A stretch of DNA of 63,968 nt, filler included, from Thermoplasmatota archaeon (lineage in GTDB: Archaea > Thermoplasmatota > E2 > JACPAO01 > JAHFTW01), in NCBI GenBank assembly GCA_041623215.1. It is 5 parts of 5 records of this genome, joined end to end, with 100 filler letters (N's around TTAATTAATTAA, not from the genome) between each part and the next. Parts side by side here need not be neighbours in the genome. Positions count along the whole stretch, not along the records: positions 31,548 to 46,597 come from JBFJXH010000035.1; 4 more parts are not named here. The stretch is one strand, 5' to 3'. Of this stretch, positions 22,282-44,176 are shown one piece after another (the first letter of the stretch is position 1; the number at the start of each line of letters is the position of its first letter). Both the position numbers and the translations under genes were made by a program. The notes beneath the pieces are model-generated. The model saw only the letters and a program-made list of their open reading frames with translations. It was not told the DNA's origin and searched no databases.

Positions 22282-22413
22282 CGAACGTCCACGATGCACG
22301 GTGGTTATGGGGTTTACCGCCGGGGCCGGCGGGGCAAAAATTAGGAGAATGAGATGGAGTGGGAAAAGATGCCCGAAGGCGGTTTGTGAAGTCGCGTTGC
22401 CACGCTGCGGTGA

Positions 22414-22638
22414 TTAGCCGAACAGGGCGCCGAGGCCGGCAGCGGCAGTCGCCAGCCGTGCAAGCACGGCTCGCTTCCGCCCCTCCCGGCGCGGCTCCTC
22501 ATTCAGTGCTTAACCGAACAGGGCGCCGAGGCCGGCAGCGGCAGTCGCCAGCCGTGCAAGCACGGCTCGCTTCCGCCCCTCCCGGTGCGGCTCCTCATTC
22601 AGTGCTTAACCGAACAGGGCGCCGAGGCCGGCAGCGGC
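22414..22638 (-). repeat. 96-bp tandem repeat: three copies of the last 33 nt of rpl12 separated by two 63-nt hairpin-containing spacers
   Basis: Copies begin at 22414, 22510 and 22606; single differences at 22417 (G vs A) and 22490/22586 (C vs T). Confidence 0.95.
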
Positions 22639-37387: not shown

Positions 37388-37547
37388 TGGGGACACTGGG
37401 ATTCGAACCCAGATCGGGTGGTCACTCCGATGGATCAGCGCTCCAGTGAATCGTCACTGCCCAGGAGCTACCCGGGTTTCTGCTGACCCTCTTCTCATCA
37501 TATCCATCACTGGAGCCACCAATGATGCCTGGTTACACCATATCCCC
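37388..37547 (-). tRNA. tRNA-Trp(CCA) with an 87-nt intron at 37/38 (intron 37423-37509)
   Basis: Acceptor GGGGATA/TGTCCCC+A; anticodon stem GGTGG/CCACC with CTCCAG; T-arm GGGTTCGAATCCC; BHB CUCC-AG^U / GGAG-UG^A. Confidence 0.96.
37423..37509 (-). ncRNA. Intron-encoded box C/D guide sRNA
   Basis: C box AUGAUGA (37501-37495), D' CAGA, C' GUGACGA, D CUGA (37438-37435); D guide UCACUGGAGC pairs with the pre-tRNA and N+5 gives C34. Confidence 0.92.
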
Positions 37548-40703: not shown

Positions 40704-40934
40704 TCAATGTTGAGCGACGTTGCTAGCGGCGTGGACGCGCTCGTCGAGGTCGGGCATGGTGATGCGAATCGGTACCTGATCCCACTTGTAGTTACAGTAG
40801 GTACAGGTCACCAATACGGATGCCCGAATCCGGTCGAGAGGCAGGGGCCGGCTGACCTCAAGGGTCTTGCCGCCATGGGTTTGAAGCATGAAGCCCGAGT
40901 CGGAACCGCATTTGGAACAGCGAAGGGTGGACAT
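40704..40934 (-). CDS. Small zinc-ribbon protein
   Basis: CSKCG...CTYCNYKW. Confidence 0.65.
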   Translation of the reverse strand: MSTLRCSKCGSDSGFMLQTHGGKTLEVSRPLPLDRIRASVLVTCTYCNYKWDQVPIRITMPDLDERVHAASNVAQH

Positions 40935-41084
40935 GTGTGCTTGTCCAATGAGTTGGACACGTTATTAAGCCCCATCGGCGCAACTGTTGCGAATTGTCCG
41001 GCAAGGCCGCAAATATTCGCGCCAACACGACAGGTGGCTGCGGCGCATCAACCACCTAGTTCCTTGTGTATCGCCCCTTTAGCG

Positions 41085-41388
41085 GGCGGGGACACTCCGC
41101 CAAGACGCACCAGAACCCACCAGGCTACACCCCTCGTGGTCCTCCACCCCGCACTCCCTCAAACGTCGCGCGTTCGCGGTGAGGCTGCTCCCTTCCGGGC
41201 CTGACCCGGTTCCCGCGTCGAAGGACTTCGACCTTCCCTCCGGAAGGCATCCATCCACCGGCCACCTCAAGGGACGAGGCTTCATCGTAAAGCGAGGGCA
41301 CCTGGCGAATCCTAGCTGCCTGGACGGGATTCGGCCGCGCTATAGACTACGCGAAACGGGGGCGCCTAATCCCCACCTAGTCCCCGCC
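41085..41388 (-). ncRNA. ffs: Archaeal SRP (7S) RNA, about 304 nt
   Basis: Helix 8 GGGAACCGGGUCAGGCCCGGAAGGGAGCAGCC; terminal helix GGCGGGGAC/GUCCCCGCC. Confidence 0.95.
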
Positions 41389-41600
41389 AAACGCCGGGGC
41401 GACACACAAGGTGGCGCAAGGCCCGCGACTTGGATGGGGTTCATCAACGTTGGGGGGTCAAACCCCCTGCGCACCAGGCCGCCCGACCGGGGGAGCTGAC
41501 ACGGTTAGACATTGGCTACGACGCGCCCGCGTACGCCACATGCCCCCCACGGGCGATTCGCTACTCCTATCACCGCGAGTGGCACCTCCGGCCCGTGAGC

Positions 41601-43115
41601 ATGAGTCCAGCAGGCGACACCATCCGCCGCATGCTGGCCTACTTCCCGTTTGACGCCCTGTTCAACACCTACACGTTTCTGTTTCTGTTCTTGCCCATCA
41701 CGCTCGCCGGCTACTGGCTACTGCCCAGGGGCCAGGCGCGCTGGCTGTGGATTGGTGGGGCGAGCCTCGTGTTCTACAGCTTCTGGGACTGGCGGTTCAC
41801 GGCCCTATTGGTGGCGAGCAGCGTCGTTGACTTCGTCGTCGCTAAGCGCATCGTGCAAGCTCGCTCGGTCGCGGCTGCAGCCGACCAACCCCAGGACGGC
41901 CCGGGCAGCCGCGCACGTCGCTGGCTACTTGCCAGCATCGTGTTCAACCTCGGCGTGCTGGCCTTCTTCAAGTACGCCATGTGGGGAACGGAGAACCTGC
42001 AATCCGTACTCTCCTTGCTGGGCAGCAACGTGGTCCTGCCCATCCCACACATCGTCTTGCCGGTTGGGATTTCTTTCTACACCTTCCAGACGTTGAGCTA
42101 CACCGTCGATGTGTATCGGGGCCATGTCACGCCCACGTCCGCCTGGCCTCGCTATCTTGCCTATGTGACGCTGTTTCCTCAATTGGTGGCCGGCCCCATC
42201 GTTCGCTACGCCCAGGTTACAAACGACTTTGACGACCTGCCCGCGCGCCTGCCAGCCGAGCGATGGAGTCGCGGCATCTTCCTGCTGGCCGTTGGGCTTT
42301 GCAAAAAGGTGGTGATTGCAGACACCTTGGCAACCGGCGTGGACCCGCTGTGGGCGCGAGCCGCAGCGGAAACCACTGCCACGGCGACCGCCGCGAGCAG
42401 CGTCGGCTTGGACACGCTCTCGGCATGGCTGGCAGTCCTTGGCTACAGCTTGCAACTCTACTTCGACTTCAGCGGTTACAGCGACATGGCCCTGGGGCTT
42501 GGCTGCCTTCTGGGCTTCACGTACCCAATCAACTTCGATGCGCCCTACCAAGCGCGGGACCCGGCCGACTTCTGGCGCCGGTGGCACATGACGCTGGGGG
42601 CCTTCCTGCGCGATTACCTGTACAAGCCGCTTGGTGGAAACCGCCTAGGGCCAAGCCGTACATTGGTCAACTTGTCAATCGTGATGCTGCTTGGCGGCTT
42701 GTGGCACGGCGCCGCCTGGACATTCGTGGCATGGGGAGGCTATCACGGCATTCTTCTGGTCGTGCACCGGTTGCTTCGTGAGCCGTGGGGCGCCCTGCCC
42801 GTTGCGGGTCAGCGGGCCCTGACCCTGTTTCTGGTGATCCTTGGATGGGTGCCATTTCGCGCCCCGGACTTTGCCACCGCCGCCCACGTCCTGCAAGCCA
42901 TGTTCGTACCCAACGGGGCCGATTGGTCGCTTCTTGCACACCCCGTCACCGCCATGCTGCTGGCGGCCCTCGCCATCACCCAATTGGCCCGCCCCGCCAT
43001 CCGCGTAGCAAGCCACCCAACGTGGCGTCACGCAGTTTGGACTTCGCTTTGCTTGGTGGCAGCCATCCTGCTGATGGGCGCCGCCGAATCACCCTTCCTC
43101 TACTACCAATTCTAA
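41601..43115 (+). CDS. MBOAT O-acyltransferase, AlgI/PatA/DltB type (copy 2)
   Basis: Same motifs as 32148-33650; ends SPFLYYQF. Confidence 0.94.
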   Translation: MSPAGDTIRRMLAYFPFDALFNTYTFLFLFLPITLAGYWLLPRGQARWLWIGGASLVFYSFWDWRFTALLVASSVVDFVVAKRIVQARSVAAAADQPQDGPGSRARRWLLASIVFNLGVLAFFKYAMWGTENLQSVLSLLGSNVVLPIPHIVLPVGISFYTFQTLSYTVDVYRGHVTPTSAWPRYLAYVTLFPQLVAGPIVRYAQVTNDFDDLPARLPAERWSRGIFLLAVGLCKKVVIADTLATGVDPLWARAAAETTATATAASSVGLDTLSAWLAVLGYSLQLYFDFSGYSDMALGLGCLLGFTYPINFDAPYQARDPADFWRRWHMTLGAFLRDYLYKPLGGNRLGPSRTLVNLSIVMLLGGLWHGAAWTFVAWGGYHGILLVVHRLLREPWGALPVAGQRALTLFLVILGWVPFRAPDFATAAHVLQAMFVPNGADWSLLAHPVTAMLLAALAITQLARPAIRVASHPTWRHAVWTSLCLVAAILLMGAAESPFLYYQF

Positions 43116-43117
43116 CC

Positions 43118-44176
43118 ATGTCCCGATTAACGACCCCCGCAATGTCTCCGGATTACCCGGCCCCTGCATGGCGGCGACAGCTGGTTCGGGTGGCCCTACT
43201 GACGATTGCCCTGTTGGTCGCCCAAGTGGCCTTGACGGCGGCCGTCGACGCACGGGGTGAATTGGGCACCGGCTTGGTTCGGCCCCTCGTGGCCGACGAC
43301 CGCGAAGCGAAACTGAACCACCTGGATGGATTGCCTTCGCCCCCGGCCACCCTCATCCTGGGCAGTAGTCGCATGGTGTTTCTTGATCCGCACGAGGCAC
43401 TCGACCACGGCTTTCCCAACCCAACCTTCAACGGGGCGATGCGCGGCGGTCGGCTTGATGATGCGCTAGCCATGTTTCGCTACGCGGTGGCCACGCAGGG
43501 CGCACCGGAGGCGGTCGTGATTGGTATCGATCCGCACCAACTGTCGGCCAGCCTCGTCGAAAACCTGCGGCTGCACCGGGACGACCGCCTGGGCCCCCAT
43601 GCGCCTGGGCAGCTCTCGAGCCTCGCCATGCCCCAATGGGCCGCGCTCTCCATCATCGACCCCTCGGCGACCAAAGATACGTACCGAGCCCTTGTCCACA
43701 ACGCCGCCGGGTTTGATTCACCGTCGGACCCCTTCAACCCCCTCGGTGGCTGGGCTACGGCTGAGCCAGCTCCCCTGGAGCCGCTTGCGTTGCAGCGTTG
43801 GGTTGACAACCGCGTCCAGGATTACCAATTCTTTGAAGCCCCCGCTAGCACGCGGCTTGAACAGGTAACGGCCCTAGTCAAGGAGGCGTCGGCGGCGGGT
43901 TCTGACGTCCACCTCTGGGTGACGCCAGAGGCCCCGGCCTTCGTGGCTGCCCTCGAGGCGCGCACCCCCTACGCAACCGCGCGTTCAGCCGTCCTTGCTG
44001 CCTTGGTAGAAGGCTGCGCGCTGGAGCGTGTTTCCGTGCACGATGCGGCCATGAACGACCAAGCGGTAATCGAGGCATCCTGGTTCACGGATGGCGAGCA
44101 TTTGCTAGCCGCAGCATCACCGTTCGTGTGGGAGACACTTGCCTCCGGCGCCGTCGACCTCTGCTCCGCGGCCTAG
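43118..44176 (+). CDS. Membrane-anchored SGNH-like partner, copy 2
   Basis: N-terminal TM; ILGSSR; DGEH; starts 2 nt after the MBOAT stop. Confidence 0.7.
   Translation: MSRLTTPAMSPDYPAPAWRRQLVRVALLTIALLVAQVALTAAVDARGELGTGLVRPLVADDREAKLNHLDGLPSPPATLILGSSRMVFLDPHEALDHGFPNPTFNGAMRGGRLDDALAMFRYAVATQGAPEAVVIGIDPHQLSASLVENLRLHRDDRLGPHAPGQLSSLAMPQWAALSIIDPSATKDTYRALVHNAAGFDSPSDPFNPLGGWATAEPAPLEPLALQRWVDNRVQDYQFFEAPASTRLEQVTALVKEASAAGSDVHLWVTPEAPAFVAALEARTPYATARSAVLAALVEGCALERVSVHDAAMNDQAVIEASWFTDGEHLLAAASPFVWETLASGAVDLCSAA

Follow-up and report, generated by a model that had tools for sequence, protein, structure and literature searches.

The window analysed here, a stretch of 63,968 nucleotides (filler included) in which contigs of one Thermoplasmatota archaeon (genome G000) are joined in a chain, holds a single Rfam family match. 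This is the archaeal SRP (7S) RNA, Archaea_SRP RF01857, on the minus strand at 41387–41086, with 138.8 bits against a gathering cut-off of 96.5 bits and an E value of 1.3e-31. The match spans model positions 1–317 in canonical order with helix 1 retained, which defines the gene as non-permuted. The genome has one SRP RNA match in all, and the locus sits inside contig C35 at more than 5 kb from both contig ends. The helix 6 loop, GGAG, fits GNAR, the SRP54-binding motif of helix 8 (CAGGCCCGGAAGGGAGCAG), with its GGAA loop, is present, and helix 1 counts 9 bp in the RF01857 alignment, formed by GGCGGGGAC at 41388–41380 with GUCCCCGCC at 41093–41085. Directly behind the SRP RNA gene, also on the minus strand, lies an ORF of 76 aa (40704–40934) with two CxxC motifs, likely a zinc ribbon, which has no Pfam match and carries its own TATA-like box at 40968–40962. 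In 41430–44176, on the plus strand and divergent from the SRP gene, is an MBOAT-family acyltransferase gene (PF03062; probable start near 41600), and a second ORF of unknown family follows it. Together the two presumably resemble an AlgI/DltB-type pair. Elsewhere in the window, on contig C34, a 133-bp segment is repeated at a 96-bp shift with 97.7% identity (22410–22638), a short tandem repeat.

The SRP RNA is enclosed by a canonical bulge-helix-bulge (BHB), and the elements claimed by the first-pass annotation all lie where it had placed them. Helix 1 provides the inner helix. Beyond it, GGCG at 41395–41392 and CGCU at 41084–41081 form the 4-bp central helix; two 3-nt bulges, UUU at 41391–41389 and AAA at 41080–41078, each follow a central strand on its 3' side; and the outer stem joins 41411–41396 to 41077–41062 through 16 pairs, all of them Watson-Crick. 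In the predicted precursor fold the central pairs have probabilities of 0.96–0.98, and all six bulge bases are unpaired at 0.995 or above. A slipped register that pairs UUUGGCGGG with CCCGCUAAA is possible at this site, and was rejected as the BHB register takes at least 0.957 of the ensemble. Cleavage of each bulge behind its second base, between 41390 and 41389 and between 41079 and 41078, would release 41389–41079, a piece of 311 nt that starts with UGGCGG and ends with CGCUAA, which reproduces the length and the junction proposed at the outset. When this piece is folded as a circle, the predicted ring keeps every helix and helix 1 is capped by a 7-nt junction loop. A 9-bp hairpin just past the trailer, at 41057–41032 on the same strand, may serve as an end signal for the precursor.

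The geometry is the same as that of the BHB in the tRNA-Trp(CCA) gene of the window (37547–37388, minus strand), as had been claimed. This reference BHB, outside the SRP locus, pairs CUCC with GGAG at 37515/37428 around an 87-nt intron at 37509–37423. The intron bears C- and D-box-like motifs. ARAGORN misses this tRNA without its intron mode and, with it, calls Arg. Bare BHB patterns are abundant: a loose pattern (G-U allowed, six inner and four outer pairs) matches 111 times in the window, which is the chance level, and the counting of such patterns was dropped as evidence. A strict pattern (Watson-Crick flanks, seven and five pairs) leaves three matches, namely the SRP RNA, the tRNA-Trp and one other. 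It is the register on helix 1, together with conservation, that places the SRP BHB above chance. No BHB was found at the ends of the RNase P RNA and the 5S rRNA of this genome, so that among the RNAs checked the enclosure is specific to the SRP RNA.

In family f1, to which this genome belongs, a TATA-like box lies 49–69 nt upstream of the central helix, mostly at 50–58, in 19 of the 21 loci searched by regular expression, and in the two that the expression missed a TTAAG box is visible by eye. The candidate box of the present gene, at 41447–41440 on the minus strand, is degenerate (TTGATGAA) and aligns with the TTAAG/TTATG boxes of the family. Archaeal TATA boxes stand at a usual spacing from the transcription start, and this spacing, applied here, would place the start near 41417, some 25 nt ahead of the motif. 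A start at that point falls upstream of 41396 and of the whole motif, so the precursor would contain the entire BHB. Nearly all f1 members have a leader that forms a hairpin of 6–11 bp directly before the BHB. In this genome the bases of the predicted leader (41417–41396) can pair with the trailer instead, within the 16-bp stem, and the same is seen at locus L015 with a stem of 14 bp.

Comparison with related genomes argues that the motif is maintained. An SRP RNA was detected in 36 of 41 relatives and in 147 of 151 genomes of the phylum, and the set for the class comprised 51 loci from nine families (f1–f9), 49 of them with both flanks. At each locus helix 1 was placed first, blind to the flanks, and a 4-bp helix was then sought at several offsets. 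With a 5' bulge of 3 nt, all four central pairs form at 46 of the 49 loci, while offsets of 1, 2, 4, 5 and 6 give 0, 0, 1, 0 and 2 loci and the mirror geometry gives 0–1. Of the three misses, L015 has a single mismatch, and L046 and L049 have a bulge in helix 1, yet are paired in the alignment of the 49 sequences (A1). In that alignment 195 of the 196 central-helix cells (99.5%) form pairs. Three of its four pairs show double-sided changes (G-C/A-U, G-U/U-A and G-C/C-G), and the GACG/CGUC form needs three to four separate changes on the tree. The eight flank pairs score 89.8%, compared with 32–55% when slid by one to three columns, and none of 500 shuffles, in which kinship is ignored, scores as high. 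The first two bases of the 3' bulge (columns A326 and A327) are an invariant A in 49/49 sequences of this unselected alignment; the AA count among motif-bearing loci, 64/64, is true by definition and was set aside as evidence. On these alignments, the BHB around the SRP RNA of the class is under selection.

The flank pairing, whose covariation in related genomes had been named as a check, is both conserved and covarying, but the outer stem is not conserved at its full length. The 16 pairs are peculiar to this genome, the longest stem among the class loci examined; relatives have mostly 1–8 pairs, and conservation is limited to the first two to four, the first four positions being paired in 45, 39, 40 and 33 of the 49 sequences. 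In families f5 and f9 the outer stem is reduced to 0–1 pair in 11 of the 12 loci listed. Loci of these two families (for example L003, L005, L043, L044 and L048) also have a central helix that is self-complementary-like, GGCY/GGCY, and many of them have an ATG directly after the 3' bulge, so that the trailer may run into the next gene. The UUU of the 5' bulge in this genome is atypical, as the third base is A in 58 of the 64 motif-bearing loci. Both bulges share their third base in 43 of these 64 loci, which leaves a short repeat at the junction. The last bases differ between the two bulges in this genome (UUU/AAA), in G019 (ACA/AAG) and in G040 (AAU/AAA), and in such species no cut other than that of the BHB would yield the observed junction.

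Evidence at the level of RNA comes from relatives. None of the RNA runs contains the organism itself, the only large shares (0.85 and 0.76) being those of DNA runs, and we used four RNA runs from two studies, on soil and mangrove communities, that contain family-level relatives (runs X3–X15 and X20 have small word shares and were unused, except X12; the DNA runs X1 and X2 were left aside). At 80% likeness to the window, one contig in each of the four RNA runs reaches 41388 and then passes into the SRP 3' end, not into the 5' flank. Exactly three bases separate helix 1 from the central strand in these contigs in 4/4 runs, the number that a BHB cut predicts, with two bases from the 3' bulge and one from the 5' bulge. 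Two contigs run round the whole RNA: record 6 of X17 (336 nt, depth 19.8) and record 15 of X19 (339 nt, depth 8.5). Less their repeated ends they come, by our estimate, to about 311 and about 315 nt, both within the 309–319 nt predicted for the family.

The genome that best fits the short contig motifs is G019, whose locus L036 gives three of four exactly. In a second comparison, X17, X18, X19 and the DNA run X12 were set against L036 at 85% likeness. A joint from place 619 to place 305, going back 315 with 0 ambiguous letters, is present in X18 (short side of 36 letters, depth 3.1) and in X19 (short side of 20 letters, depth 7.9). Place 619 is the second base of the 3' bulge AAG and place 305 the third base of the 5' bulge ACA, the equivalents of the cuts predicted at 41079/41078 and 41390/41389, and the ring size of 315 nt had been predicted for L036 before the joint was mapped. 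Loose ends of the joined form occur as well, with a 5' end behind 619 in X17 and a 3' end before 305 in X19. Every one of the four listed contigs that reach an RNA end is joined, and none enters the genomic flank. Per 120–150 letters, the sequences from the RNA runs depart from L036 at 4–7, and the letters of the bulges are those of L036 alone. Other joints map to helix 8, where the sequence is conserved, and have the look of mixed organisms. Being assembled contigs with depths of 3–20, these data are silent on level and on strand, and they lose rare linear forms. The junction reads that the first-pass annotation had named as a check have their counterpart in contigs from relatives, where the 3' end is joined to the 5' end at the predicted cut.

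The genome encodes the proteins that such processing would use. Its EndA, of 375 aa, has two N-terminal PF02778 stretches and one catalytic PF01974 domain, and its best matches among solved structures are archaeal tRNA-splicing endonucleases. Candidates for the catalytic Tyr, His and Lys can be made out in the EndA alignment. RtcB, SRP19 and SRP54 are encoded as well. The early suggestion that this RNA matures like an intron gains support from the covarying flanks, the predicted start upstream of the motif, the joined ends in the RNA contigs of relatives and the presence of EndA and RtcB genes. Of the three outcomes that were to refute it (a start inside 41396, a lack of junction reads, flank pairing that is not conserved), none was encountered.

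A maturation pathway can now be proposed, starting from the gene, its conserved and covarying motif, the enzyme genes and the head-to-tail junction observed in RNA of family-level relatives. A transcript begun at the TATA-like box upstream would form a precursor with a leader of about 25 nt and a short trailer, and the flanks would pair into a BHB stacked on helix 1. The cutter of both bulges would be EndA, judging from the geometry, in which the RNA retains a single 5'-bulge base and two 3'-bulge bases. RtcB would join these ends into the 311-nt ring, in the same event in this organism as in its relatives, and the ring would assemble with SRP19 and SRP54. The whole SRP RNA would so take the part of the intron and, being closed, would offer exonucleases no free ends. 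That a ring is made at all appears highly probable to us. The whole account, in which EndA cuts the BHB, RtcB closes the product and the 311-nt ring is the mature SRP RNA, we consider likely.

The ring might be made and be only passing or minor, reopened to a permuted linear RNA or standing beside a linear SRP RNA that does the work. Circular pre-rRNAs are known to be re-linearised, and in P. furiosus the junction of 23S rRNA is reported to persist in a molecule that is linear and permuted (PMC7758197); in assembly graphs, moreover, a ring and a set of overlapping linear permuted molecules are indistinguishable. A minor ring would agree poorly with the contigs themselves, since those that run round the whole RNA are unbranched at the junction and no listed contig ends cleanly at helix 1 or enters the flank, which suggests that the joined form dominates. 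As for reopening, an unsystematic look at alignment A1 revealed no second processing signal. We regard a passing or minor ring as unlikely. Less probable again is that EndA merely trims the precursor to a linear SRP RNA, with joints that arise by template switching of the reverse transcriptase or by ligation during library preparation. Such an artefact would be helped by the position of both ends side by side in helix 1, and by the repeat (A-G-G or longer) lying across the junction wherever both bulges have A as their last base, as in 43 of 64 loci; the contig depths are low, and the library type of X18 and X19 is recorded as 'other'. Against it, the identical base-exact joint is found in two studies whose library records differ, and it is free of ambiguous letters on L036, where the bulges read ACA and AAG. 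An artefact should also be a minority beside linear ends, whereas all four listed contigs that reach an end are joined, and circularisation in vivo is reported for tRNA introns, which the same enzyme cuts (PMC4731332; PMC12558985). These points make an artefact very improbable.

The joined form would have another origin if it were present in DNA, as a tandem or permuted SRP gene, and the flank pairing would lose its meaning if it were a plain extension of helix 1 with no role in processing. The DNA run X12 covers only 466–567 of L036, short of both RNA ends, and the RNA evidence is read against L036, not against the genomes of the RNA-run organisms themselves, which leaves room for a joint in their DNA. 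The junction pattern, however, is found in the DNA of none of 151 class genomes, and all 20 full-length matches in family f1 besides the present one cover model positions 1–317 in canonical order. A wider junction pattern gave 35 matches in JGI metagenome contigs, 0/35 with an SRP core nearby; all of them are on contigs longer than 1 kb, so that rings of 310 nt may be missing from such data. A plain stem extension, for its part, would not preserve two 3-nt bulges with an invariant AA. Either variant is, in our judgement, extremely improbable, and excision and closure by way of the BHB is the reading carried forward here.

Comparison with known systems places this SRP RNA beside two of them. 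Thermoproteus tenax and T. uzoniensis have a permuted circular SRP RNA of 309 nt with a 23-nt leader (Plagens et al. 2015, PMC4731332), and EndA cuts its BHB in vitro in that study, in line with the precedent to which the first-pass annotation appealed. The likeness is close: a whole SRP RNA is flanked by a leader and a trailer, both short, that pair into a BHB, the tRNA-splicing endonuclease is the enzyme of excision, and a single exact junction closes a ring, the enzyme's part and the ring being predicted here. The Thermoproteus gene, however, is permuted and lacks helix 1, whereas the gene here is canonical and keeps it. The junction in Thermoproteus restores the helix 8 loop and is needed for SRP19/54 binding, whereas here it would cap helix 1, and the SRP RNA would fold without ligation, unlike its Thermoproteus counterpart. 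Thermoproteus is also a hyperthermophile with a relaxed heterotetrameric enzyme, while the present EndA is a fused two-unit enzyme and soil and mangrove communities are the source of the RNA data. The second system is rRNA, for which BHB-excised rings of pre-16S rRNA and of pre-23S rRNA and circular mature 23S rRNA are described (PMC12918454; bioRxiv 10.64898/2026.03.23.713588; PMC7758197), with circular 23S rRNA reported in Thermoplasmatota. There too a structural RNA that is not permuted, and around which a BHB stem closes, is excised and circularised whole, although, as far as these sources go, rRNA processing stems are longer and rRNA rings are often reopened. In its way of working the SRP RNA here is akin to the Thermoproteus ring and to the excision of pre-rRNA, without being a member of the permuted type. 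Archaeal tRNA introns, such as that of tRNA-Trp at 37509–37423, share the BHB geometry and the cut positions, and the excised piece is circularised; their main product is the ligated exons, whereas in the SRP RNA the excised piece is the essential one and the 'exons' are a short leader and trailer.

Other circular SRP RNAs derive from canonical genes, as here, and appear in the accessible accounts as fragments or minor forms with no BHB named. They comprise a circular 47-nt segment in S. solfataricus (PMC3326292), pieces of 92 and 111 nt in H. volcanii and of 39 nt in S. acidocaldarius (PMC12558985), a minor SRP RNA junction in T. barophilus (bioRxiv 10.64898/2026.03.23.713588) and a minor circular form in Bacillus (PMC10504365). 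The T. barophilus junction may represent a ring of whole length, which would bear on novelty. Term searches found no mention of SRP in the main text of the H. volcanii EndA substrate survey (PMC7714728) or in the accessible text of the circular 23S rRNA survey (PMC12918454), and a review of archaeal SRP describes helix 1 as paired termini, its available text giving no match to 'circular' (PMC2905702). Within the full-text literature searched, outside which most subscription papers lie, there is no report of a BHB-made ring from a non-permuted SRP gene; the permuted Thermoproteus gene is the one case.

The survey of range took in Thermoplasmatota and the Thermoproteota side, with Halobacteriota, Methanobacteriota, Asgard and DPANN outside it. 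From other families of the phylum we took 68 loci (8 best matches and 60 picked for family spread), 67 of them with flanks, and 16 of the 67 pass at offset 3, compared with 1–5 at other offsets. By eye, the motif is clear in f11, f14, f16, f17, f22, f26, f29, f30, f33, f34, f38 and f39, and f12, f24 and f27 show variants, in which the central pairs number three or helix 1 is short. It is missing by eye in f10 (0/7), f13 (0/7), f20 (0/6), f23 (0/3), f32 (0/3), f35 (0/4) and several single-genome families, and f28 has one doubtful motif in five loci. Offset-3 passes in f20 (L082, L085), f36 (L112), f28 (L099) and L288 were rejected as chance, since the AA of the bulge or the outer pairs are missing. 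In f13 and f28 (for example L069–L075 and L099–L103), where there is no BHB, the helix 1 finder often failed, which suggests a short helix 1, or its loss, in these lineages. On a tree of SRP RNAs (98 rows, with subsampling in the class and the outgroup and with labels assigned by eye) the motif is clustered, with 6 changes compared with 33 when shuffled, a signal too weak for an order of gain and loss. The f32 SRP RNAs are 79–84% identical to a DHVE2 group record and 74–82% identical to an Aciduliprofundum record, and cluster with both on this tree, a kinship that gives indirect support to the placing of the window in Thermoplasmatota. The BHB motif is missing in both the DHVE2 group and the Aciduliprofundum record. 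Should the cultured members of the phylum sit in families without the motif, as the record suggests in the case of Aciduliprofundum, this would account for its having been overlooked. When named genomes were searched for the helix 8 motif in order to cover all archaea, 120 loci came up, three of them archaeal by title.

SRP RNA is universal, and to our knowledge there are few accounts of how its ends are made in archaea. SRP rings produced through a BHB were known from one hot-spring genus, in which ligation repairs a rearranged gene and heat stability is given as the reason. Here the gene is intact, and the same machinery would serve it in nine or more families of a single class and in roughly a dozen further families of the phylum; with the gene intact and the RNA evidence coming from soil and mangrove, neither repair nor heat explains the ring. 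Were the account true, an essential RNA would join the substrates of EndA and RtcB, and the arrangement would be a plausible stepping stone toward permuted SRP genes. Lineages with and without the motif form a natural comparison panel. One may go further and suppose that covalently closed rings are the default form of mature SRP RNA in a large branch of Thermoplasmatota, mostly uncultured and with non-thermophilic habitats included, and in some Thermoproteota, and that splicing-based maturation of a canonical SRP RNA is an old archaeal pathway, lost in the usual cultured models, and the missing intermediate toward the permuted Thermoproteus gene. We offer this broader proposal tentatively, at somewhat less than even chances.

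On the Thermoproteota side, 30 genomes gave 22 loci, three of which pass the offset test. Two of these, L300 (G271:C32:667-984) and L302 (G272:C9:347676-347991), belong to one family and carry a BHB on SRP helix 1 with bulges AGA and AAA; the family is represented by two genomes and its class by three in the collection. Their central helices differ by a compensatory change, GUGG/CUAU in one and GGAG/CUCC in the other. By this pairing evidence, the BHB pathway may reach beyond Thermoplasmatota. Eight of the 30 genomes (G276–G280, G282, G298 and G299) have no canonical SRP RNA match, and some of them may carry permuted genes like that of Thermoproteus. At L297 (G295:C44:48745-49128) the SRP RNA match extends over 384 nt, about 70 nt more than in its relatives, a possible insertion or intron.
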